Positions 41,908 through 58,174 of a stretch of 58,174 nucleotides of DNA are shown in pieces. Under the pieces are notes generated by a model, which was not told the DNA's origin, searched no databases, and saw only the letters and a list, made by a program, of their open reading frames with translations. The stretch's first letter is position 1, and each line of letters begins with the position of its first letter. Origin of the DNA: a virus (Duplodnaviria > Caudoviricetes); the IMG/VR virus record IMGVR_UViG_3300032309_000708, positions 1 through 58,174 of that record. One strand, written 5' to 3'. Made by a program: the position numbers and the translations under genes.

Positions 41908-43350
41908 ATGTCAATCAATTACGGCCCAATAAACGAGATTAAAGATTTAGCGTTTAAATACTCTAAGCCACAACTTGGACGTATGGCGCAGCTTGGGTTG
42001 ATCGATACCCAAAAAGCTGTATTAGCAGCTATGATGAGAGAACGTGTTGCTAAACAAGATGCACAACCGCCGACCGCAACAGTAGCGCAAGATGCACTTG
42101 GCTTACAACCTCCACCACAACAACAAGCTCAACCGCAGCCGCAACAAATGGGCATGCAGCAAGGGCAACCTCAACAGGCTCAGCCACAACCACAACTAGC
42201 TCAAGCCCCTGCTGGCATAGAGTCTTTACCTGCCGGTAATGTTGGCAACTACGCTGGTGGTGGCATTGTTGCGTTTGATGAAGGTGGTGAGGTACCGGGT
42301 TACGCTCGTGGTGGGTTTCCTACTATGCCAAGTACAAATATTCAGTTAGGTCAACTTAAAGGCCCACAGGAAAAAACAATTGAAGAAATAATTGCTGAAC
42401 AACAAGGCGTATACGAGCAACAAGGCTTAGTAAACCCGTATGAAGGGTTAATGCAACAGCAAGAAGCTAAGCGTGGTGAACTCGATACACGTAGAGAACA
42501 AGCTAAAGGTGAGTTCTTAATGAATCTTGGCACCGGTTTAATGCAGGCTCAAAAAGGTAGAGAGTTAGCAGCTTTAGGTACAGGTGCGCTTAAAGGCATG
42601 GCAGACTACAAAGATGCTATGAAAGATTTACGTGCATCTGAAGAAAAACTTGACGATAGAATCGGCGCATTTAAGTTGGCTGATTATCAGGCTAAGAAAA
42701 CCGGCACAGATGCTGCTATTGCTAGACGTGACTCGCTTCGTGATAAAGTTATAGAAACCGAAAATAAAAATATCGAAGCTCAAAATGCTGTTGCAGTTGA
42801 AGGCAAGAAACTTGAGATGCAAGGGTTTAATACCGCAATGGGTTATAAAGGCACTGTCGATGCCGCAAGTATACGCAACGCAGCTATGCCTGACTTATAT
42901 AAGATGGCAAATTCACCCGACATGTTAAAATCTATGCCTAACTCTACGTTTGCTCAACGACTAGAAGCAGTAGGTAAATACGCGCATCCTAAAGATTCGT
43001 ATAACGCATTAACATCACGTTTTAACTTATTAAATAAAACCATTGCTGAGACTAACTATCCATTAAGTATATCGTACAACTTGGCAAAGACAGATGCGGA
43101 GAGAAAAGAAATTTTAGATAAGATGAATGCAAATGCTACTAGAATTAGAACAGAGCAGCAGTGGACCGCGTCTGATAATGCTAGACTGCAACGCGAACAA
43201 GCTCAATTAGATGGTACAACACAAACACAAGGTCAAGCTTTACCACTGCCCCCTACCGAAGCAGAACTTCAAAAAGGGCAGCTATATACTACTGCAAGAG
43301 GCCCAGCTATTTGGAATGGAACAGCGTTTGTAGCAGCACCTGCAAGATAA
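41908..43350 (+). CDS. putative ejection protein
   Basis: Q/P linker, YAGGGIVAF motif, coiled coil. Confidence 0.65.
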   Translation: MSINYGPINEIKDLAFKYSKPQLGRMAQLGLIDTQKAVLAAMMRERVAKQDAQPPTATVAQDALGLQPPPQQQAQPQPQQMGMQQGQPQQAQPQPQLAQAPAGIESLPAGNVGNYAGGGIVAFDEGGEVPGYARGGFPTMPSTNIQLGQLKGPQEKTIEEIIAEQQGVYEQQGLVNPYEGLMQQQEAKRGELDTRREQAKGEFLMNLGTGLMQAQKGRELAALGTGALKGMADYKDAMKDLRASEEKLDDRIGAFKLADYQAKKTGTDAAIARRDSLRDKVIETENKNIEAQNAVAVEGKKLEMQGFNTAMGYKGTVDAASIRNAAMPDLYKMANSPDMLKSMPNSTFAQRLEAVGKYAHPKDSYNALTSRFNLLNKTIAETNYPLSISYNLAKTDAERKEILDKMNANATRIRTEQQWTASDNARLQREQAQLDGTTQTQGQALPLPPTEAELQKGQLYTTARGPAIWNGTAFVAAPAR

Positions 43351-46300
43351 TGGCAAATACATTTTCGTTTGAAGACGCTTTAAAACCAGCGCCACAACAA
43401 GGGCCTACTACGTTTTCGTTTGAAGATGCGTTTAAGCCCGCCGTAACTTCTGGGCCGAATCCACTAGACCCACAACAACCTGCGCCAGTACAAGCAGCTC
43501 AACCTGCGCCTACACCTACACCTGTTGCTAAAGAAGAACCCGGCCTTTTAAATGATATATCTAAAGGCTTTCAACGTATACCAGCTAGCTTAGCTGAACA
43601 ATACGAAGGGATATTTACACGTAAAACTGCGCAGATGGCCAAGGGCAATCAAGTCCAAACTGCGTTGTATAACATGATTGATGCTGGTCAAATTAAATCC
43701 GACAGCGATCTTAATAAAGCTTATTTAAAATTACTGTATGGTAAAGAGCAACTATCTCCAAAAGAAATACTAGCGCATGGTAATTTAAAACAAAGTTTGG
43801 CAGCCGCAGATGCGTATGAGTATATGAACTCGTCACCAGAGCATCGTGCTGCTATGAGAAAAGGCGTTGAAACTGCAGCGTCTCAATCTTTAACTAGGTT
43901 TGAAGAATCACGAGCACGTAGTAAAGAACGTGAAGCAGAACTAGAAAAGCTTGCCCCAAGAGTTAGACAGTTTACTGATATTGGTAGTCCGTATGAAGCG
44001 GCTAGTTGGGCGGCTGGTAGATTGCCTGAGTTTGTCGGTACAAACCTTCCACAGATAGCTGCGGGTTATTTTACTGGTCCCGGCGGTCTTGCCCTTACTA
44101 GCGTAATACCAGAACTTTCAGGTGGAACTAAAGAACGTGTTAAGTACATGGAAGGTATTGTTAAAGACGAACCTGATCCAGCTAAACGCAGTCAAGCTTT
44201 AATTGATTACATAAATAAAACGCAAGATGTTACGTTGCAGGCGGCTGTGCTTAATGGTCTAACGGACATGATTATTGGTCCTGAAGCCGAAGCAGTTAAG
44301 CTTGGTGTACAAAGCGCATTTAAAGAAGAGGTACGCAAAGAAATTCTTAAGAAGCTACCAAAAGTTGTAGGTGGTGAAGCTTTAGGTGAAGGCGCTACTG
44401 GCGGCATCCAAGAAATTACCAATATGGTAGCGGAAAGATCTTTGGGTGAGATGCAAGGTGGCGTATTTACTGCTGAGAATGCTAAACGTATTATCAACTC
44501 AATGGCTGATGAAGCACTTGGGGGCGCAGGTGTATCTACTGGAATGCAACTAACTAAAGCCGCGTTAGCTAAGAAAAACTTAGCCGACACAGATACGCCT
44601 GAAGGCAGGGCAATGCGTGGCCTTGATGATTTAGTTAATCGAGAAGAAGCCGGAACAACAGAAGATATGACCGTTCCGCCTGCCCCACCTGCTCCACCCA
44701 CAGCACCACAACGTGCAATACCTACCGAACCACTATTTACGTTTGATACCCCTGAACAGGCGCAAGAGCGTACTAACCTATTAAAAGTTAACCGCCCTAA
44801 AGAAAACTTTGCGGTTCAAGAAACAGAAGATGGCAAATTCGGCGTATATCAAATACCAGTCGGAGAAACAGGAGGTACAAATGTTACCCCACCTGCAGTA
44901 AATAAAAAAGAAGTAGAACAAATAGCTAGAGGTGGGTGGTTTGAGTTATCCGATGCAGAGCGTTTAGAACTGCAGGGGGATTTACAGTTTCTTAAAGATT
45001 CAGGAAGAACTATAACCATAAATAGTATACCCGAAGAAATTCGAGCAAAACTAAGCCATTCTGCATTAATAAATTTAAAATCCGCGTTAAACCAAGATAT
45101 CAATGCAACTATAGCTGCGCTAACGCCGTCTAGCAAAAAAGAAACAGCCACAGGAGGTGAAGATGTTACCCCACCTATCACAGACGCAGATGGAGCTGGC
45201 ACTGAAAATATTGGCGAACCCCCACAAGGTACCGGTGCCGGAATCCCTCCATCATCTGAGGGAACAGGACTGGGTGTTTCTGATACAGATGTTACGGGAG
45301 CTGGAGTATCAGAAGGAATTCAGCCTCATACACTAACCAGAAAGCAATTCCAAGAAGCTAATACAGACCTTCAAACGTTTAATAATTTATTTTCGCCAAA
45401 CTTTGAACTTACAGACAACTTAGATACGTTATTAACTAGCGGCACTGAAAGCGATCTTCACGTTGCAAGCAAAATATTTGGGCTTAAACCTGTTATAGGT
45501 AAAAAACGCGCTGCGGAAAATATTTCAGCGACTATTAAAAAAATGAAATTGGCAGAGGGTTTAGATCCCGCACAAGTGGCGGGGATGAAGTTGCCTGAGC
45601 TAAAAGAATTAGCCAACGAACTTGGAATATCTACATACGGAAATAAAGATGTACTTATATCAAAAATTAATAACTTCTACCCTAATTTAGAAAGTAAAGT
45701 TGAAGAAAATTTAAAAAATTATGCCCACGAAACCGCTGTTCGTAGTGCTGTAGTAAATGGAAAACCTGTAAGTGATGAGGTACTAAAAGACTATCCGGAG
45801 ATTGCTGCGTACGCAACCCCATTGGGATCAGGGGCATATACTCAAGCTATAAAAACGTTGTCAAGGAAAATGCTACCGCAACATCTAATGGACGTGCCAT
45901 CTACTGCGCGACACCTTAGAGAAGATGCAGAGCAATCAGGTGATGGAAGACAAGCTGCCGTGCTAAGGGACATTGCCGATGCAATGGAAGAGTATTACAA
46001 AAACGCTTTTGGTATAAAAGAAGAAGCACCTGCAGCTGAAGAAACTGTACCTACAGAAGAAGAAGTAACCGCGCTTAACGACACTATTGAAAAAGGTATA
46101 AAGGATAAACTTGAAGGTTTATTAGTCGGCGATGAAGTTAGATTTGGTAACACCCCCGGCGTTGTTGTCGGCTTAGAAGGTGATTATGCTAAGTTTCATT
46201 CCGCTAGTTCATCTAATCCTAAAGCGTACACACGCGTACTAAAAAAACAATTAACTTTTGTATCGCGTCCTAATACAAATTTTACATCTGCGTCTTCAAA

Positions 46301-49300
46301 AGAACCTACAAAATTTGGCGAAGAATCGGGGATGCTTGACGTAAACAAAGCTAGGCTTACTAAGACGCTTGGCGCAAATATGTATAAGGAAAACCTTGCC
46401 GACGTTGCAGTTAAAGAGATGCTGCAAAATTCTTTTGACTCTGTAAAAGCTAATGTTTTCTTTGGAAATATTAAAGAAGGCAAAATAGATATTAAATTTG
46501 ATTCAGGTAAGCGAACTATAACTATTACAGATAACGGGGAAGGCATGACGCCTGAAATCGTTAGAAAAGCTTTCTTTACTATCGGTGGGTCACACAAAGC
46601 TGGTGTACCTATGGAACTGCAAAGTGGCGGTTTTGGTATGGCAAAGCTTGGCTTTATTATGGGGTCCGAAAGTATACAGTTAAATACTGTTAAAGATGGC
46701 GTGCGCACTAAAGTTGATGCTACTTCTGAAGATATAGGCAGTGACAACTTTAAGATACAAAAAAGCCCTGCTCCAGCAAATGAGCATGGCACTACTATAA
46801 CAGTAAAAATACCTGAAACCTATACCGATGCCCGCAGTGGTGATGAAAAATCAGTTTATTTTCCTTATGGCTTATATGGTGTAAGTGCATTAAATCGTCC
46901 ATTAATAGGGCCAGTAGAAGTAAATGTAGATTTTGATGGGGATAAGAAGACCCTTCCTATTGGGGTTAACTTTGATTTTGAAGCTACGCCAAAACTAACT
47001 ACAGTTAAGTTCCCTTGGGGTACAGCAGATGTGTATTTTGGTGTAGAGCGCAAGCCAGAAAGATACGAACCAAAACATAGAGTTTTAAGTAGCGGTGTAT
47101 ATCAGTTTGATTATAATAAATTTAATTTAGGGCAAAATGAACCAATACCATACGACATCATAGTAGATGTTAAATCTGCTGTGGAAGCTACAGATAGAGA
47201 ATATCCGTTTGAAAAAAATAGAGGAAGTTTTAATGAAGTAATTATAGAAGATATAGCATCATTAGCGCAGTATCTTGCAAAAGTAGCTAGAGGCCACGAA
47301 GCAGAAGGATTGCAAGAAACATTTAAAGATATTGTAACTATGCCTCGTACAGAGGTGGGTACAGAAACGGCTGAAGCATCTGCAAAACTTAGAAAAGTTT
47401 TTGACCAGCGTGGCGCAGACAAGGGTACGTACGAGTTACCACCAATGCCTAAAGAAATTATAATATCAGGCGGTACAGTTACAGATAACAAAGGTGCTGT
47501 GCTAGTAGAAAAAGAAAAAACAGAAGATAGAAAACGTGAGTCTGGGTTTGAAGCGGATAAAGCTGCGCCTGAAATGTCCCAGTTCTTAGTGGATATGAAG
47601 CAGGACCCACGACAGCCAATATTTCATAGTAATGTAAATACAGACTTATTAGAAATTGGTCGTAAATATGGTAACCCAGAACAGTTCTTTGCCGAGTTAG
47701 GTACTCTAGTAGTAGAGATGAAAGAGGAACTATCTAAGAGTGGTATATGGACATACGACCAGTTATCTCCAGAAAATCTATTTTTTGCCGGTGTATCCAT
47801 AGATAAAGGCTACGGCGGTGTGTTTATAAGAGTGCCATTTAAAGGTATTTTACTTAACCCGTTCTATGACTGGGGTGCAAAAACTTTATTCGGCGTTCGT
47901 CAAAACTTTTTAAACACAATGATTCATGAGATTGCACACCAAACAAGTGGTGAGCATGATCGCTCTCATGAAAATGCCATGCTAAAGATAGAACAGTATT
48001 TAGCAGATACTGGCACATTAGATTATTTTAGAGACGCTATACTAGATATTCTAGTAAAGCATGAGTCAACTTTTACCGCAATGCGGGAGGCGTATGGAAG
48101 ATCAACAACAAAGAACGTTGCAAAGTCTCTTGAGGATTACGGGAAATCTCCCACCTCAGCAGAAATTGGAAGAGATGAGGGCCGCCGCACAGACACGTCT
48201 GGTAAATTATCAGAACGAGGGGAACCAGTACGGAGTAGCGACTTACGTACCGATAGTGGCGAAACTGGAAAAAGCGAAGTCGGTAGAGGAGGCCCTAAGT
48301 TTTCTGTAAGCAACGAAGAGAAGATTATTAACCAAGGCATGGTTGGGGGTGACTTACACCCAACAGTAGTAGACGCTATTGCTAATAACGACCTTAACGG
48401 TGCGCTAAAACTAGTAGCTGATCGTTTATCTAGTATTGGGTTTAAAACCAAATCGGGTTACTTTTTAGGGCAGCTTGCAAATAGACTAGCAGATTTAAAC
48501 TTGCCTACAGGTATACGTATTGGCGACCAACGTAATTTAACGCGTAGGTCTATTGATTTATCCACTGCCCCTGCACAGATACAACTGTTTAATTTTATAC
48601 GTGTGGCTATGCCAGATGTGTATAACAAGTATTTCCAAGGTTACGATAAAGCTGAAAACCTTGAACAAGTGTATGCCGGTCTAAAGCATATTCAAAACAA
48701 TCCAAAGTTAAAGTCAGTGTTGCCACAGTACGAATCAATATTGCGGTCGTTTGACAACAACATGGTTGCTTTAAAAGCTCTTGGTGTTTACTACCCAAGA
48801 TTCGATGAAATAAATTTAAACGATAAACTCAAAGACGGGCTTTCGTATCAAACGTTTTTACATGAAGTAGTACACGCTGCTACAGAAATACTTTTGCAAA
48901 CGCCAGCAAATGAGCGTACCGCTGAACAAAATGAAGCTATTGCAGAGTTAGAGAAACTATTTAATGCAGCAAAAGCTAATTCGAATGTTGCCCATTATGG
49001 GTTTACAGATTTATCAGAATTTATAGCAGAGGTGTTTACAAACCCGGTATTTATAAAAGACTTAAAGGGTATACCATATCCACCTGCACGTACAAATATA
49101 TTTAATAGGTTTGTAAAGATAATAATGGATTTGATTGGTATGGACAACGTTGCTGGCCGTGCAATGATAGAGGCCCAAAAGTTGTTTAATGCTGACCGTC
49201 CAAACATACCAATGTCGGCGGGTCCTAGATTTGCAACAAGGCAACGTGGACCTATTAGTTCTAAATGGCGAATTGTAGAAGATACCATGAAGAGCGTTAA

Positions 49301-52300
49301 GAATTGGGAAGTTATTAAGAACGACTTAGTTCCTGCAATGTGGGACGCTACTAATGGTGTGTTCCGTAGCGCTATGCTTGGTGTTATGAACTTACGTCAG
49401 ATTGCTGACGTTACTAAAACTAAGTTCCCGCAGATTGACGCTGCTATTCGTACGATTGAAAAGATGCTTGCTTATCGTGGCAAGATTATGAACGACGGCG
49501 GTGAAATTGTTCAACGTTGGACTAAGGCTCAAGCTAAGAACTTAAAAGGTTCGCAGTTGCTAGGTCGTGTTATGTTAGAAGCTACTATTCGTGGGGTAGA
49601 AGTTGACCCACAAAGTAGTCAATATAATCCACTTAATTTTGTAGTAAATAAAGAATTAGTGGACGCTTGGGACGCATTAGGTCCAGACTTCCAACAGATA
49701 TACAGGGATGTACGGGATTTCTATAAACGTGCCGTAGAAGAAACAGTACGCCTAATGAAAGAACGTGCTAACAGTGTAACTGACCCTGTAGAGCGCCAAG
49801 AACTTTTAGACAGGATTGATGCACAGTTTGGCCCTGATAAATTAAAAGGTCCGTACTTCCCGTTGCGTCGTTTCGGTGAGTTCTGGTTCCAAGTGGGTGA
49901 AGGTAACTTTAAAGAATTCTATATGTACGAAAACCGTATAACTAGAACTATAGCTATGCGTGTTAGAAAGCGTGAATTATCCAAAGGTAATGCGCGACAA
50001 CGTGCGCTAGCAGAAACAATAAGTAAGGGTAACGGCGTGTCTACGTTGTACAGTCAGAACGTGGGTACTACTAAAATACTACAAGACGTACAAGATATAG
50101 TTGATAGTATAGGTAATAGCGTGGTTGATACAGCTACAGGCTTACCTAGAGATAAAACTCAAGATGAGTTAAAGGGCGAGATCAGAGATAGCTTAAACCA
50201 GCTTATCTACATACTGCTACCACAACAGAGCATGCGTAAGATGTTTATTAACCGCAAAGCAATTCAAGGCGCAAGCGGCGATATGTTACGTGTGTTTGCT
50301 ACACATGCGGTTCACAGTGCTTACCAACGTTCACGCTTTAAATATGCTCAAGACTTTATGGATAACTTATCCAATGCGCAAAATTGGATTGCTTCGTTTG
50401 CAAAAGGTGATAAGGCTGAAGTTTATCGTGATTATGTAAATGAAGTAGAAAAACGTTCTAAAACAATTTTAGGTACTGAAGATACTAGTTTGGCTGCAAG
50501 AGCTGCGGGTAAGGCTTCTGAGGCAGTGTTCTACTTTATGTTGTCTGCACCGTTTACTGCTATGTTAAACCTAGTGGGCTTTGCTCAAATAGCTATGCCG
50601 TACATTGGTGGTAGATATGGCTACGCAAAAACTAATGCCCGTATATTAGAAAACATGGGTAAGTATTTGCAGACAGTACCGAAGCGTACATTCTCACCTT
50701 TAGTAAACGGTGCTGTAATGGATATGTCTTTCCCTTCTATAGTAGAAGGTGGTAACTTAACTGGCATATTAAAAGACGCGGCACAACAGCTTTTAGACGA
50801 AGAGCAAATTAATATTTCTTTAACTAATGATGTTTTAAATGTTGGTTCAGGCCCAACAGCGGCATATACTGGCACATACAACGCTGTTAAACGTGGTATA
50901 TCCGCTTTGTTCCATCAATCAGAACGTCTGAACCGTGAGATTACATTACTGTCGGTTGTGGAACTTGCATATGAAAAGCTCATGTCCGAGCCTATCAAAG
51001 ATGTTAAAGGTATTGTTAAACGTGACGCACAGGGTCAACCTATGCGTTATACCGACAATGCTACAACCTCTGATGGTACAACTCAGTATTCACAAGAAGC
51101 TTTAGAGTTAGCTATTAACGAAGCTAAAGATATTGCGGGCTTATCGCTTGGTGACTTTACTCGCCAAATGAAACCTAGATTTTTTACGCCACCAATATTA
51201 AGTGTATTAACTAAGTTTAAACAGTATGCAGTTTTAGCTTCTTATGCAGTTATTCGCAATGCACATTTAGGATTACTCAAACCGTTTTCGAAAGCAGAGT
51301 TAAATGAGTTGCGTGGTGTACTAGAAGAGCATTACAAAACTGCTGTAGATAAAGATAAGATAATTGAACAGCAAATGGCTGAAGCGCAAACGCGCCAAAA
51401 AGAAATTGCTAAAGAAGCGCGTCGTAGGCTAGCAGGTATATTAGGTATGACGTATTTGTTTGGTGGCTATGTTGCCTTGCCGTTTTTTAGCACGGTTACA
51501 CCTATACTGGTTGGCATGTTGGCGGGTGACGAAGACGATGAGGACGACTTCTTTGACTGGGAAAATTGGTTTAAGAATTATATGGAAACCGAATTTGGTG
51601 GTTATGTCGGCGCTATGTTACAGAAGTTCGGTGTTGACCAAGAAAAAGCAAATAAGGTAGGTAAAAAAGTTAGTGAGACCCTTGTATATGGTCCAGCTTC
51701 TACAGTTACTGGCGGTGCTTTATCTGATCGTGTTAGCTTAGACTTAAAAAATCTATGGTACAGAGATGGTCGTTATTCACCTGACACCCGTGAAAGTATT
51801 GTAGAAAGCATGATTGCTAACGCAGGTCCTGTGGTTGGTTTAACTGTAAACGCAGCAGACGCATGGGATATGATACAAGAGGGTAAAGTTGGCCGTGCGT
51901 TTGAGAGAATGGCTCCAGCTCTATTTGCTAAACCAGTAACCGCAGCTCGTTTAGCTACTGAAGGCGCTAAAACAAAAGGTGGTGACGTTCTTGTAGATGA
52001 ACTTACAACTACAGAAATAGCATTGCAAGCAATTGGTCTACAACCTTTACGTGTAGCAAAAGCACAAAAAGCTTCAATTGAAACAGTAGAAAAAGTGCAG
52101 AAGATTCAGGACCAGTACAGCTCCTTAATGAATAGGTTATGGATGGAGCGTAACAACCCACAAGAATTTAATGACGCACTTGAAAAACTAAACGAGTTTG
52201 CTATGAAACATCCGGGGTATAAAATAAACGGCAGGACTATAAAAGAGTCGTTTAAGAAACGTGCTGAAGATGCAGCGTTGGCAGATGTGTTTGGTGCTCG

Positions 52301-52364
52301 TATACCTAAGCCGTTACAAAGCGACCCTACAGTTACGAACATGCCAAACTACGGTAAGGATTAA
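43350..52364 (+). CDS. giant polyvalent ejection protein (3004 aa): SAP-like motif, GHKL ATPase, two HExxH metallopeptidase domains
   Basis: TAATG-coupled start; LPELKELA..LGI..GNK..LI; EMLQNSFD, DNGEGM, GGFG and HGT GHKL boxes; HEIAH; HEVVH...EFIAE. Confidence 0.85.
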   Translation: MANTFSFEDALKPAPQQGPTTFSFEDAFKPAVTSGPNPLDPQQPAPVQAAQPAPTPTPVAKEEPGLLNDISKGFQRIPASLAEQYEGIFTRKTAQMAKGNQVQTALYNMIDAGQIKSDSDLNKAYLKLLYGKEQLSPKEILAHGNLKQSLAAADAYEYMNSSPEHRAAMRKGVETAASQSLTRFEESRARSKEREAELEKLAPRVRQFTDIGSPYEAASWAAGRLPEFVGTNLPQIAAGYFTGPGGLALTSVIPELSGGTKERVKYMEGIVKDEPDPAKRSQALIDYINKTQDVTLQAAVLNGLTDMIIGPEAEAVKLGVQSAFKEEVRKEILKKLPKVVGGEALGEGATGGIQEITNMVAERSLGEMQGGVFTAENAKRIINSMADEALGGAGVSTGMQLTKAALAKKNLADTDTPEGRAMRGLDDLVNREEAGTTEDMTVPPAPPAPPTAPQRAIPTEPLFTFDTPEQAQERTNLLKVNRPKENFAVQETEDGKFGVYQIPVGETGGTNVTPPAVNKKEVEQIARGGWFELSDAERLELQGDLQFLKDSGRTITINSIPEEIRAKLSHSALINLKSALNQDINATIAALTPSSKKETATGGEDVTPPITDADGAGTENIGEPPQGTGAGIPPSSEGTGLGVSDTDVTGAGVSEGIQPHTLTRKQFQEANTDLQTFNNLFSPNFELTDNLDTLLTSGTESDLHVASKIFGLKPVIGKKRAAENISATIKKMKLAEGLDPAQVAGMKLPELKELANELGISTYGNKDVLISKINNFYPNLESKVEENLKNYAHETAVRSAVVNGKPVSDEVLKDYPEIAAYATPLGSGAYTQAIKTLSRKMLPQHLMDVPSTARHLREDAEQSGDGRQAAVLRDIADAMEEYYKNAFGIKEEAPAAEETVPTEEEVTALNDTIEKGIKDKLEGLLVGDEVRFGNTPGVVVGLEGDYAKFHSASSSNPKAYTRVLKKQLTFVSRPNTNFTSASSKEPTKFGEESGMLDVNKARLTKTLGANMYKENLADVAVKEMLQNSFDSVKANVFFGNIKEGKIDIKFDSGKRTITITDNGEGMTPEIVRKAFFTIGGSHKAGVPMELQSGGFGMAKLGFIMGSESIQLNTVKDGVRTKVDATSEDIGSDNFKIQKSPAPANEHGTTITVKIPETYTDARSGDEKSVYFPYGLYGVSALNRPLIGPVEVNVDFDGDKKTLPIGVNFDFEATPKLTTVKFPWGTADVYFGVERKPERYEPKHRVLSSGVYQFDYNKFNLGQNEPIPYDIIVDVKSAVEATDREYPFEKNRGSFNEVIIEDIASLAQYLAKVARGHEAEGLQETFKDIVTMPRTEVGTETAEASAKLRKVFDQRGADKGTYELPPMPKEIIISGGTVTDNKGAVLVEKEKTEDRKRESGFEADKAAPEMSQFLVDMKQDPRQPIFHSNVNTDLLEIGRKYGNPEQFFAELGTLVVEMKEELSKSGIWTYDQLSPENLFFAGVSIDKGYGGVFIRVPFKGILLNPFYDWGAKTLFGVRQNFLNTMIHEIAHQTSGEHDRSHENAMLKIEQYLADTGTLDYFRDAILDILVKHESTFTAMREAYGRSTTKNVAKSLEDYGKSPTSAEIGRDEGRRTDTSGKLSERGEPVRSSDLRTDSGETGKSEVGRGGPKFSVSNEEKIINQGMVGGDLHPTVVDAIANNDLNGALKLVADRLSSIGFKTKSGYFLGQLANRLADLNLPTGIRIGDQRNLTRRSIDLSTAPAQIQLFNFIRVAMPDVYNKYFQGYDKAENLEQVYAGLKHIQNNPKLKSVLPQYESILRSFDNNMVALKALGVYYPRFDEINLNDKLKDGLSYQTFLHEVVHAATEILLQTPANERTAEQNEAIAELEKLFNAAKANSNVAHYGFTDLSEFIAEVFTNPVFIKDLKGIPYPPARTNIFNRFVKIIMDLIGMDNVAGRAMIEAQKLFNADRPNIPMSAGPRFATRQRGPISSKWRIVEDTMKSVKNWEVIKNDLVPAMWDATNGVFRSAMLGVMNLRQIADVTKTKFPQIDAAIRTIEKMLAYRGKIMNDGGEIVQRWTKAQAKNLKGSQLLGRVMLEATIRGVEVDPQSSQYNPLNFVVNKELVDAWDALGPDFQQIYRDVRDFYKRAVEETVRLMKERANSVTDPVERQELLDRIDAQFGPDKLKGPYFPLRRFGEFWFQVGEGNFKEFYMYENRITRTIAMRVRKRELSKGNARQRALAETISKGNGVSTLYSQNVGTTKILQDVQDIVDSIGNSVVDTATGLPRDKTQDELKGEIRDSLNQLIYILLPQQSMRKMFINRKAIQGASGDMLRVFATHAVHSAYQRSRFKYAQDFMDNLSNAQNWIASFAKGDKAEVYRDYVNEVEKRSKTILGTEDTSLAARAAGKASEAVFYFMLSAPFTAMLNLVGFAQIAMPYIGGRYGYAKTNARILENMGKYLQTVPKRTFSPLVNGAVMDMSFPSIVEGGNLTGILKDAAQQLLDEEQINISLTNDVLNVGSGPTAAYTGTYNAVKRGISALFHQSERLNREITLLSVVELAYEKLMSEPIKDVKGIVKRDAQGQPMRYTDNATTSDGTTQYSQEALELAINEAKDIAGLSLGDFTRQMKPRFFTPPILSVLTKFKQYAVLASYAVIRNAHLGLLKPFSKAELNELRGVLEEHYKTAVDKDKIIEQQMAEAQTRQKEIAKEARRRLAGILGMTYLFGGYVALPFFSTVTPILVGMLAGDEDDEDDFFDWENWFKNYMETEFGGYVGAMLQKFGVDQEKANKVGKKVSETLVYGPASTVTGGALSDRVSLDLKNLWYRDGRYSPDTRESIVESMIANAGPVVGLTVNAADAWDMIQEGKVGRAFERMAPALFAKPVTAARLATEGAKTKGGDVLVDELTTTEIALQAIGLQPLRVAKAQKASIETVEKVQKIQDQYSSLMNRLWMERNNPQEFNDALEKLNEFAMKHPGYKINGRTIKESFKKRAEDAALADVFGARIPKPLQSDPTVTNMPNYGKD
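45163..45336 (+). CDS. nested +1-frame gene A inside the giant ORF (57 aa)
   Basis: AGGAGGT-4nt-ATG; MLPHLSQTQMELALKILANPHKVPVPESLHHLREQDWVFLIQMLRELEYQKEFSLIH; host frame is a G/T/E/P low-complexity linker. Confidence 0.7.
   Translation: MLPHLSQTQMELALKILANPHKVPVPESLHHLREQDWVFLIQMLRELEYQKEFSLIH
48094..48309 (+). CDS. nested +1-frame gene B inside the giant ORF (71 aa)
   Basis: GGGAGG-3nt-ATG; amphipathic helical MEDQQQRTLQSLLRI...AKSVEEALSFL; host frame is a G/R/S/E linker. Confidence 0.6.
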   Translation: MEDQQQRTLQSLLRITGNLPPQQKLEEMRAAAQTRLVNYQNEGNQYGVATYVPIVAKLEKAKSVEEALSFL

Positions 52365-56622: not shown

Positions 56623-57012
56623 TTACTTACGTTTAATTGTAAATTCATATTCACTATCTACATTTAGTCCGGGTGGGTGTAAGTCAGGGTTACCCTCCAT
56701 AAACTCTTTCATGTTAGTTTGATGAATACGTTTTTCTAACAACCCCATTGCATCATTGTCCTGCATAAAACCATAAAAGCTTTCCCAGTCGTTAGTCCAA
56801 TAACGATTCTTGACTGTACGGTACGCTGTGTAATTGGGTGTTGAAAAAGTTGTTGCGCCGGTGTCTTTAGATAACTCAAGTAGCTTATGCTTTAGCACTT
56901 TCATTTGCTCTTCAAGTTCGGCTGTGCTTTCTTTATATGCACGATACAGCTCTTCTTTTTTGTCACGTATTTTTACATACGTTTCAACAATCTTATCTAT
57001 GGGTACATCCAT
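56623..57012 (-). CDS. replication-module protein
   Basis: Y.KIRD, DW..FY.F, LLEKRI.Q and PPGLN motifs; AGGAGG RBS. Confidence 0.7.
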   Translation of the reverse strand: MDVPIDKIVETYVKIRDKKEELYRAYKESTAELEEQMKVLKHKLLELSKDTGATTFSTPNYTAYRTVKNRYWTNDWESFYGFMQDNDAMGLLEKRIHQTNMKEFMEGNPDLHPPGLNVDSEYEFTIKRK

Positions 57013-57032
57013 ACTTCCTCCTTTCGTGTTGG

Positions 57033-57144
57033 TTGTTGGTGGCCGGTGCTGATCTCCGACTTTCTGAGTTTGTCATGGATCGCCCACTTTGGATTCACTT
57101 CAGCTAACCCTTGCTTGCGTATCAGCCTACGCATTCACCAACAA
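57033..57144 (-). ncRNA. candidate tRNA-like / kissing-loop structured RNA
   Basis: 9-bp closing stem TTGTTGGTG/CACCAACAA; hairpins TGCGTA-GGCTGA-TACGCA and GTCGG-AGATCAGCA-CCGGC with complementary loops; own promoter. Confidence 0.7.
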
Positions 57145-57148
57145 ATTT

Positions 57149-57176
57149 ATTCTACTCCTATTCTTTACAATGTCAA
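57149..57176 (-). promoter_or_regulatory. sigma70-like promoter
   Basis: TTGACA-16-TAGAAT. Confidence 0.75.
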
Positions 57177-58174
57177 GTGATTTCATTAATTTCGTTCTTA
57201 TATAAATCAATTATTTTCTTGTGGATTTCTAACTTACCTTGCAACATCGCATACAACTTTGTCTCTACTGGACTGCCTTCTATATGCACAACAGTTACAG
57301 GATTCTTTTGTCCTTGTCTATGCACACGTGCGTTTGCTTGTAAGTAGAACTCTATGGATGTTACTGGAGCGTACCAGATGACTACGTTTGCTGCGGTTAG
57401 AGTCACACCATGCGCTGCAGCTTGCGGTTGTATTAATAAAACCTTTGGGTCTTTCTCTTCTTGAAACTTTTTAAATACTTCTGTGCGTTTAGTAACAGGT
57501 ACTTCCCCGTTAATAATTTCGCTAGTAATACCATTCTTGTTTAAGAAATCTTTTAATAAAGCTAACGTATGTGTGAATGGCACAAAGATAAGAACTTTAG
57601 CTGTAGCTTCTTCAATAACTTCTAGTATTACGTTGAGTCGGTTAGATACATCAAACTCAATAACATTTTTGTTATCAGAGTACACAGCACCGCATGATAT
57701 CTGTAGTAGTTTTGTTAGGTTAGCAGCAGCATTTACTGCCGACACATCTTCACCAACAGCACTAATCAAAAAGTCTTTCTTTAGTTGATCGTAATATTTC
57801 TTTTGCTGTGGGGTCAACGGTGCTATGCGGGATACGTGTGTTACTTCAGGAAGATCAAGGCATTCTTCTTTTGTGTATCTGATAGCGGGTTGCAGCATAG
57901 CGTGTACTATTTTGTCTGCGTTAGGTTTAGGTATCCATTTGAATCTGGTTAGTTGATACATGACGCTATCACGGTACGCTCCGAACAGATTCGGCGCTTT
58001 TTCTGGCACGCACATCTTGGCTAAACCATAAGCATCAAGCGGGGATTGTGCAGCAGGTGTACCCGTCATCATCCACAACCAAGTCTTTGGTGTAACTATT
58101 TCACGTAATGCTTTAAAGCGTTTTGTCTTTGCGTTCTTGTATGCGTTGGCTTCATCAACAATGATTAAATCAAA
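57173..58174 (-). CDS. SNF2-family helicase (5' part outside the window)
   Basis: frame open to the window end: IIVDEAN Walker B, MTGTP, KLLQI, HGVTLT.A, QANARVHRQGQ. Confidence 0.9.
   Translation of the reverse strand, partial: FDLIIVDEANAYKNAKTKRFKALREIVTPKTWLWMMTGTPAAQSPLDAYGLAKMCVPEKAPNLFGAYRDSVMYQLTRFKWIPKPNADKIVHAMLQPAIRYTKEECLDLPEVTHVSRIAPLTPQQKKYYDQLKKDFLISAVGEDVSAVNAAANLTKLLQISCGAVYSDNKNVIEFDVSNRLNVILEVIEEATAKVLIFVPFTHTLALLKDFLNKNGITSEIINGEVPVTKRTEVFKKFQEEKDPKVLLIQPQAAAHGVTLTAANVVIWYAPVTSIEFYLQANARVHRQGQKNPVTVVHIEGSPVETKLYAMLQGKLEIHKKIIDLYKNEINEIT

Follow-up and report, generated by a model that had tools for sequence, protein, structure and literature searches.

A family of phage RNAs with a fixed four-way-junction frame and an exchangeable arm

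Introduction

To our knowledge, the transfer RNA (tRNA)-like RNAs known from phages are few, and each has a fixed sequence. The C4 RNA of phages P1 and P7 and the CI RNA of phage P4 (RF01695) are antisense immunity RNAs that are cut out by RNase P and whose loops differ between heteroimmune phages; in P1, C4 lies in the immI region. Outside this group, the YrlA-type bacterial Y RNAs join a tRNA-like module with canonical T and D loops to another domain, are linked to rsr and occur in some phages; and both the engineered “tRNA scaffold” and the tRNA-like/microRNA chimeras of herpesviruses carry a cargo on a genuine tRNA body, the tRNA machinery stabilising or releasing that cargo. Here we describe an element of about 110 nucleotides (nt) in a 58,174-base virus record (IMG/VR record IMGVR_UViG_3300032309_000708; completeness rating 92%), the whole of which we call the window. 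The element lies on the minus strand, in the gap between the genes for an SNF2-type helicase and a DUF7307 protein, and belongs to a family in which a fixed frame is combined with more than 100 unrelated inserts, members being found in P1, HK620, Stx2-converting and Klebsiella phages among others.

Results

Layout of the element in the window

The element is a strand-specific, covarying four-way-junction RNA consisting of a fixed frame and an exchangeable arm, and its family is horizontally exchanged. Its parts in the window, in 5' to 3' order, are listed here; A1 and A2 are the family alignments described below.

57136..57144, minus strand: 5' strand of the closing (“acceptor-like”) stem, UUGUUGGUG; from sequence and fold, the helix covarying across the family
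57116..57133 (hairpin 57132-57117), minus strand: 5' hairpin in the D-arm position, U-GCGUA-GGCUGA-UACGC-A; from sequence and fold, with two-sided changes at all 5 pairs in A1
57061..57115, minus strand: variable cargo arm of 55 nt in the anticodon-arm position; a singleton among 142 distinct cargos, with no Rfam match and a fold z of +0.44
57042..57060, minus strand: 3' hairpin in the T-arm position, GUCGG-AGAUCAGCA-CCGGC; from sequence, with two-sided changes at all 5 stem pairs in A2
57033..57041, minus strand: 3' strand of the closing stem, CACCAACAA; from sequence, fold and family covariation

The closing stem UUGUUGGUG/CACCAACAA comprises 9 bp, includes CACCA and, as is characteristic of the family, ends in GGUG/CACC. 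The 5' hairpin, AAU-GCGUA-GGCUGA-UACGC, follows the family pattern GCGYA-GGCUGA-URCGC with one compensatory pair off the consensus, and the 3' hairpin, GUCGG-AGAUCAGCA-CCGGC-CACC, follows the family pattern GYCGG-AGAUCAGCA-CCGGC directly before CACC. The two loops are complementary, GCUGAU (57126-57121) with AUCAGC (57053-57048), and six pairs are possible. An initial annotation of this locus had described a promoter, an RNA of about 110 nt closed by a 9-bp CACCA stem, two hairpins with complementary loops, a 55-nt inner segment and a Shine-Dalgarno (SD) sequence some 10 nt further on; all of these are present on the minus strand. Its placing of the two hairpins in D-arm- and T-arm-like positions also holds: a closing stem, a D-arm hairpin, a variable arm at the anticodon position and a T-arm hairpin adjoining the 3' strand of that stem follow one another.

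Taken alone, the window element folds with a minimum free energy of −36.6 kcal/mol (z −2.1), modestly better than chance (4 of 200 shuffles were equally good), and this minimum-energy structure gives its 3' half a fold other than the second hairpin. Given this weak single-sequence fold, the structural support comes from the homologues and not from the fold of the window.

A large family that is absent from Rfam

The element belongs to a large phage RNA family that is absent from Rfam 15 and unannotated among the matches listed. Members share the frame GGUGAAU-GCGCA-GGCUGA-UGCGC, cargo, AAGCCGG-AGAUCAGCA-CCGGC-CACC, and the outer stem beyond this frame varies by lineage. Two scans of IMG/VR yielded more than 160 distinct members. 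The scan with a 3' 18-mer, a pattern that does not contain the 5' half, returned 71 stretches; a 5' half that matched was present in 64 elements, of which 56 were distinct (54 without the window copy and the false match L236); ten stretches lacked the 5' motif and were mostly chance matches in coding DNA, two being partial elements. The 5'-anchored scan, with the loop left free, returned at least 120 stretches with 108 distinct sequences. As both of these large sets come from exact-pattern scans, the counts are lower bounds. A scan with the exact 9-mer stem ends of the window element gave 117 stretches, again mostly chance matches in coding DNA, and the frame, seen by eye in four rows, allowed better scan probes to be built. 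The exact 23-mer of the window's lineage, searched against one genome per species, matched only three times (a Burkholderiales metagenome-assembled genome (MAG), a Pseudomonadota MAG and Paludibacterium); lineages differ in their closing stem, which explains the small number, and the result says little about host range.

Among cultured phages, blastn with a 401-bp stretch of the window found no match, the conserved halves being short and split by a unique cargo, while the member L296 as query matched 147 records (65 from Klebsiella and 43 from Escherichia phages, with Salmonella phages, Stx2 phages and HK620 among the rest). The resemblance to lambdoid prophages pointed out in the initial annotation proved apt, HK620 and Stx2 phages carrying members. 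The 5' frame is also present in at least 924 of 5426 complete E. coli genomes (17%, about 1 in 6), at 806 chromosomal and 239 plasmid places; among the matches listed these sites are unannotated, save for an occasional “hypothetical protein”. A model of the family, R1, scores the window copy at 91.4 bits, by construction, as the window is in its training alignment; for members outside the training set it gives 68.7 bits (HK620), 59 bits (P1), 73.9 and 59 bits (a P1-like plasmid) and 72.7-79.5 bits (three other cultured phages). R1 finds a single copy in the 58-kb genome of the window.

A survey of IMG/VR by Fremin et al. (2023) reported 10,006 structured-RNA candidates, including tRNA-like ones and motifs upstream of terminase and other genes (PMC10690425, in the portion available). 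The family described here may be among those candidates; the available portion of that text holds no matching description. The frame sequences, taken literally, did not occur in the literature text searched.

Three stems covary and the structure is strand-specific

We analysed two alignments, A1 from the 3'-anchored set (46 sequences) and A2 from the 5'-anchored set (94 distinct rows); two were used because one half of the frame is held constant by either scan. In A1, all five pairs of the 5' hairpin changed on both sides, and in A2 the same was true of six of the nine closing-stem pairs and all five pairs of the 3' hairpin. Closing-stem column pairs 3/235, 4/234 and 6/232 each show 4-5 pair types with 0 unpaired cells. 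Paired cells make up 96.4% of A2, compared with 25-61% after displacing the 3' partners by 1-3 columns, and 0 of 500 shuffles reach the observed values. The closing stem, the 5' hairpin and the 3' hairpin thus all covary.

In both sets ~99% of the loop-loop cells are paired (99.5% in A2), so that the loop complementarity is kept in homologues, a conservation that had been set as a test when the element was first noted. Variation in this helix is essentially limited to one position (G-C 77, G-U 13, A-U 1, other 1); in L217, a diverged copy, six loop-loop pairs are kept through two wobble changes. The covariation check suggested at the same time accordingly came out positive for the closing stem and both hairpin stems, with the loop-loop helix nearly devoid of covariation.

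Several asymmetries between the strands show that the structure is read on the element's strand. G-U/U-G cells number 74 and A-C/C-A cells 32; a terminator lies within 120 nt downstream in 15 of 150 flanks vs. 6 of 148 in the opposite direction; and an SD sequence with a start codon lies within 60 nt downstream in 29 of 150 vs. 3 of 148 in the opposite direction.

Relation to known RNA classes

The topology is that of a cloverleaf, with helices supported by covariation and a 3' hairpin that directly adjoins the 3' strand of the closing stem. ARAGORN reported 0 tRNA genes in the window and none at the elements in the member loci scanned, and Rfam 15, including its tRNA model, gave no match to the window element at E<=10. 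The frame was unmatched in Rfam searches of 18 loci at gathering scores and of 15 loci at E<=1; within the elements, the sole match to the Rfam tRNA model was to the cargo of L104/L216 (model positions 5-66). Neither the C4/CI antisense RNA (RF01695) nor any ribozyme family in Rfam matched the window (E<=10) or 15 other member loci (E<=1), and no Y RNA family was among the Rfam matches, whether Rfam 15 holds a YrlA model being unchecked. The T-loop consensus (GTTCRA-type), the D-loop consensus and a 7-nt anticodon loop are all absent, the loops of nearly all members being GGCUGA and AGAUCAGCA. The lack of a canonical anticodon arm and of TTCRA reported in the initial annotation is therefore confirmed, and ARAGORN and Rfam gave no known family to which the element could be assigned.

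Two kinds of described RNA are not counted as members. The E. coli K-12 small RNA rydB (L390:1223-1239) has a hairpin that matches the 3' hairpin of the element at 17 of 18 nt and lacks the rest of the frame; this likeness is either a coincidence or a relic. The Pas small RNAs of E. coli prophages, which in the available part of their report are Hfq-type, have terminators and are confined to Escherichia/Shigella (PMC13192938), are not equated with the family. Among the small RNAs of phage P22, one is located upstream of the holin gene, according to the available part of a further report (PMC13397905).

In phage swi2, an ARAGORN “tmRNA” (transfer-messenger RNA) call at L389:1907-2281 covers the element and a neighbouring tRNA-Met, and is most likely a false call built on that tRNA.

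The cargo arm is exchanged freely

The 142 distinct cargos are 25-160 nt long (median 64.5) and fall into 118 unrelated clusters, so that the combination of fixed ends and a variable inner segment expected from the window holds across the family. No loop is conserved in the cargo arm among the 142 cargos. One 78-nt cargo is 100% identical across records of P1-like, lambdoid, Stx2 and Salmonella/Klebsiella phages, and within one cargo family a compensatory change distinguishes L283 from L273 (read by eye).

It had been suggested that the inner segment is antisense to phage or host RNA, or that the RNA is a tRNA mimic against anticodon nucleases. The longest complementary runs of the window cargo within the window are 10-11 nt, which is chance level, and within ±3 kb in 55 members the mean longest run is 8.64 nt vs. 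8.62-8.84 in controls; the antisense proposal thus finds no complementarity above control in either setting. As to the anticodon-nuclease decoy, no anticodon-like loop is conserved, and only two cargo types resemble host stable RNAs. One of these (L104:3978-4026 and L216:4160-4208) is a sense copy of a tRNA without its acceptor ends and anticodon arm, i.e. of the tRNA elbow; the other (L348:4600-4646 and L358) is a sense copy of helix 11 of 16S rRNA (E 6e-8). Compared with the E. coli rrn operon, the L348/L358 type matches 16S and two others match over 12-13 nt only; a general rRNA-mimic role of the cargos was dropped, with a single cargo type matching 16S.

Genomic settings of the members

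tRNA genes are present in 8 of 53 member loci, in all eight on the strand of the element; in seven they are within ~200 nt, and in L261 about 1.3 kb away. In P1, the element (R1 match at L393:1210-1312) lies in the C1-controlled ban operon, after the dicF-like region, trnA and trnT. The plp/upl open reading frames (ORFs) of P1 are annotated on the strand opposite to the element and the ban operon (L393:865-1434, corresponding to 69472-70041 of the P1 record), and may be spurious calls over a non-coding RNA region. In Klebsiella phage SopranoGao, an annotated “hypothetical protein” overlaps the element. The annotated “dicF-like region” of the P1 operon is at 68791-68892 of the P1 record, and a weak DicF match (E 0.065) is found just downstream of several enterobacterial members (L348:4721-4770).

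Other settings are diverse. A P1-like plasmid carries two copies of the element. HK620 has it between pR'/qut and the late terminator, an Stx2a phage just 3' of a CI-like repressor gene, with further genes of the same strand coming next, and swi2 upstream of tRNA-Met. The SopranoGao copy comes after the lysis genes, and an Ackermannviridae phage carries the element within a 3-kb unannotated stretch. The nearest same-strand downstream ORFs, of which 24 were picked from the 53 elements of the first set, comprise 6 terS genes, 2 helix-turn-helix (HTH) regulators, 1 methyltransferase/ParB, 1 major head protein, 1 uncharacterised PHROG and 13 without a match.

Arrays on freshwater contigs consist of the element and a second module, ACGCAUGRGGAUUG ... 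AGUCCYCAGCC, in alternation; they end in a terminator and are followed by a new promoter. This second module precedes the element at L211:1700-2340, L251, L255, L258, L222 and L392:2430-2700, and its version in the P1-like plasmid, GGUAAGGG ... CCCUUACC, has a canonical T arm. Its 3' strand adjoins the closing stem of the element, and part of its flank could compete for the same strand. Directly past the last element of the L251 array, an abiF RNA motif (RF03085; L251:1719-1755, minus strand, 55.6 bits vs. a gathering score of 37) doubles as a terminator hairpin; the same abiF-type hairpin sequence also follows the element in L366.

For a HK620-type relative, most of a 501-bp stretch is covered by contigs of 12 RNA runs from 5 studies; each of three runs inspected covers the stretch, one as a 1440-nt contig at a depth of 412.

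The window locus and its accessory insertion

The minus-strand gene order in the window is SNF2-type helicase, a 160-nt gap, the DUF7307 gene, a 291-amino-acid (aa) gene, a small HTH gene and a 939-aa DUF927 primase-helicase gene. The features around the element are as follows.

57173..58174, minus strand: 3' part of the SNF2-type helicase gene, open at the window end; from the ORF list, with Pfam SNF2-rel_dom and Helicase_C and PHROG 62 DNA helicase
57171..57176, minus strand: −35 hexamer TTGACA; from a promoter scan, the promoter pattern being conserved in 79 of 81 related loci
57149..57154, minus strand: −10 hexamer TAGAAT, separated from the −35 hexamer by a 16-nt spacer; from the promoter scan
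57025..57032, minus strand: CCAACACG, identical to the initial 8 nt of the module found after such elements in arrays elsewhere; from comparison with L222, L244 and L255, which continue ...CCAACACGCAUG...
57010..57022, minus strand: SD sequence AGGAGG (57022-57017) and ATG (57012-57010) of the DUF7307 gene; from the ORF list and sequence
56623..57012, minus strand: 129-aa gene of the DUF7307 (Pam3 gp33-like)/phrog_13900 family; from the ORF list and domain/PHROG searches

The TGA stop codon of the helicase gene (57175-57173) shares bases with the −35 hexamer, and the SD sequence of the DUF7307 gene begins 10 nt past the closing stem of the element. TTGACA-16-TAGAAT agrees with the promoter consensus at 11 of 12 positions. 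The region contains 2 promoter-like sites, with 5.4 expected from shuffles, so that the number of sites by itself is no evidence for a promoter; however, 79 of 81 related loci (the window counted) have the pattern TTGACN-N15-18-TAnnnT at this same position, where the helicase gene ends. Judged from spacing only, transcription would start ~7 nt past the −10 hexamer, at the first G of GUUGGUG; with this start, the RNA would begin inside the closing stem, at the very 5' end of the transcript.

Relatives of the DUF7307 protein are encoded on 160 viral contigs, 80 of which were examined, and a search with R1 found no copy of the element in these 80 related loci. L001, L003, L004 and L005, whose DUF7307 proteins are 94-100% identical to that of the window, have a short leader in which the ~110-nt element is absent; in L001 and its close relatives, this leader follows the −10 hexamer and rejoins the window sequence at ACGAAAGGAGG. 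The absence from the closest relatives indicates that the element is an accessory insertion in the window phage. No target-site duplication is found at the insertion, the junctions sharing only ACG, and CCAACACG is probably a leftover at the insertion boundary, judging from its likeness to the array modules.

The same slot between promoter and SD sequence holds other inserts in L002 (~90 nt), L018/L019 and L020/L024. A different frame, …ACGGGUUAGCGCCG … CUGCUUUAUGUGAGA…, occurs at L020:2390-2490, L024:2390-2490, L018:2380-2470 and L191:6997-7101, with a closing stem that is the same or covarying; this frame, found in the slot of relatives of the window phage and also elsewhere, probably represents a sister family. 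Two further observations concern the window at large: a 3017-aa ORF closes its structural module (43311-52364, plus strand), and a weak Rfam match to JA04, an Aggregatibacter small RNA, lies antisense within the helicase gene (57417-57481, plus strand; 31.4 bits vs. a gathering score of 81, E 0.023) and is probably due to chance.

Discussion

The explanation that we find most plausible, and that we hold tentatively, at a little less than an even chance, is that the element is a stable RNA scaffold of tRNA-like shape on which a variable cargo is displayed, an RNA that would be processed, would persist and would act in trans through that cargo. Under this proposal, the closing stem would stack on the 5-bp 3' hairpin as an acceptor stem does on a T arm; the 5' hairpin would take the place of the D arm, with the GCUGA/UCAGC loop pairing replacing the elbow formed by D loop and T loop; and the arm at the anticodon position would be a freely exchangeable cargo of 25-160 nt. 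The window RNA would be made from the conserved promoter at the helicase end, as the extreme 5' part of the DUF7307-primase transcript. The compact frame could confer nuclease resistance; host tRNA-processing enzymes would probably excise the RNA from operon and tRNA-cluster transcripts; and the cargo might carry a specific activity, as a decoy, an aptamer or a sponge for a factor of the host or of a rival phage. The interpretation given in the initial annotation is, overall, partly supported, the discrete and processed RNA being so far a prediction from sequence.

Several observations weigh against the scaffold proposal. On average, cargos show little structure (n=53, mean z −0.38, 28% below −1), and the window cargo, which is unstructured (z +0.44) and matches nothing, could be filler. 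The T-loop and D-loop consensus is absent, which makes recognition by tRNA enzymes an assumption. The loop-loop helix is nearly without covariation, so the kissing interaction is conserved yet unproven by covariation; several members with a GACUGA loop retain UCAGC, which gives an A-C mismatch, and a kiss of 5-6 bp between two short adjacent hairpins may be sterically strained. Exact-pattern anchoring means that conservation of the frame is overstated on the anchored half. The contigs from RNA libraries of the HK620-type relative show neither transcription nor ends, as DNA carry-over or read-through can be their source, and in a single raw-read run for that relative no read was found.

The most serious competitor, which we regard as unlikely, is a leader that acts in cis, as a 5' stabiliser against 5'-end-dependent decay, as an mRNA/tRNA punctuation site or as a put-like antiterminator, with the cargo as filler. 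Such a leader fits the promoter-proximal position in the window, where the element starts at or near the predicted transcription start and stops 10 nt before the SD sequence, and that in HK620, between pR'/qut and the late terminator; in the Stx2a phage the element comes right after the CI-like repressor gene, with other same-strand genes next; six of the 24 downstream genes examined are terS, heads of late operons, terminators follow 15 of 150 members, and the average cargo structure is weak. However, the arrays of L251 and L255 end in a terminator and then a fresh promoter, which resembles a free-standing RNA unit; phages that are nearly identical manage with the same operon lacking the element; HK620 is already equipped with Q/qut antitermination; and a cargo that is 100% identical in unrelated backbones, together with the L283/L273 compensatory change, argues for selection on the cargo itself. 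Descent from tRNA offers another account, in which the element is a decayed, functionless relic that hitch-hikes in tRNA clusters. It would explain the cloverleaf topology, the real tRNA genes alongside, the neighbouring modules with canonical T arms (L211 and the P1-like plasmid) and the units that combine the same closing stem with canonical D and T arms (L109, L155). A relic would drift, whereas the frame is near-invariant across phages of gamma- and betaproteobacteria with compensatory changes in three helices, its loops are conserved to a non-tRNA sequence, and many types of phage, as well as 17% of complete E. coli genomes, contain its 5' part; we therefore consider a relic improbable.

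Two further explanations appear very improbable to us, each to a similar degree. A miniature inverted-repeat mobile element or a recombination site, active at the DNA level and with no RNA role, would fit the presence/absence polymorphism among close relatives, the inverted ends, the identical copies in unrelated phages and the bordering of modules by repeated CACCAACA/UGUUGGUG-type words, but not the strand asymmetry (74 G-U vs. 32 A-C cells), the bias of orientation towards downstream terminators and SD sites, or the co-orientation with neighbouring tRNA genes in 8 of 8 cases; moreover, the insertion in the window lacks a target-site duplication (only ACG is shared), and the 58-kb genome holds one copy. 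A small self-cleaving or other catalytic RNA, with the junction and the loop-loop contact as its core, is suggested by the junction residues (AAU, AA) and the two loops, all of them strictly conserved, and by the abundance of the element in phage intergenic regions and arrays, where known small ribozymes are also common; against this, Rfam ribozymes match neither the window (E<=10) nor 15 other loci (E<=1), no conserved candidate cleavage site was identified, and most of the conserved residues are explained by pairing.

Beyond the scaffold proposal for the element itself, a broader idea, which we regard as speculative and would not expect to hold, is that the family is a natural RNA display cassette common to proteobacterial phages, in which the frame is recognised by conserved host machinery and the horizontally swapped cargos act in conflicts of phages with hosts and with one another, whether as decoys, sponges or guides. 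If so, the cassette would parallel accessory anti-defence gene slots at the level of RNA, and the model phages P1 and HK620 would harbour an overlooked class of functional RNA. Should the frame serve as a handle for stabilisation or processing, with the inserts as the active parts, the family would open a testable route to RNA functions in infection, lysogeny and counter-defence, and such a handle would also be a natural scaffold for RNA expression. A minor consequence for annotation is that P1 and Klebsiella phage SopranoGao have annotated hypothetical ORFs lying over these RNAs.

Compared with described systems, the family resembles phage tRNA genes (RF00005) in architecture: both form a four-way cloverleaf in which a terminal stem of 7-9 bp adjoins a 5-bp stem at the T-arm position, and family members are found within phage tRNA clusters or next to them, sharing their strand. 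Unlike tRNAs, its members have neither the T- and D-loop consensus nor a 7-nt anticodon loop; they carry, at the anticodon position, an arm of 25-160 nt that is unrelated between members, build the elbow from 5-6 Watson-Crick pairs, and are unrecognised by ARAGORN and the Rfam tRNA model. With the C4 and CI RNAs, the family shares a small size, a phage origin, a cloverleaf-like fold and a promoter-proximal position ahead of operon genes; it differs in that its frame is unrelated and has no Rfam C4 match, its complementarity to nearby sequence is not above control, and its copy in P1 is in the ban operon. The YrlA Y RNAs are likewise non-coding and join a tRNA-like module to another domain, whereas the loops of the family are non-canonical. 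The engineered tRNA scaffold and the herpesvirus chimeras, in which a cargo is placed within or attached to a tRNA-like frame, may provide the working analogy for the family, which in contrast to them is natural and bacterial-viral and is built on non-tRNA loops of its own.

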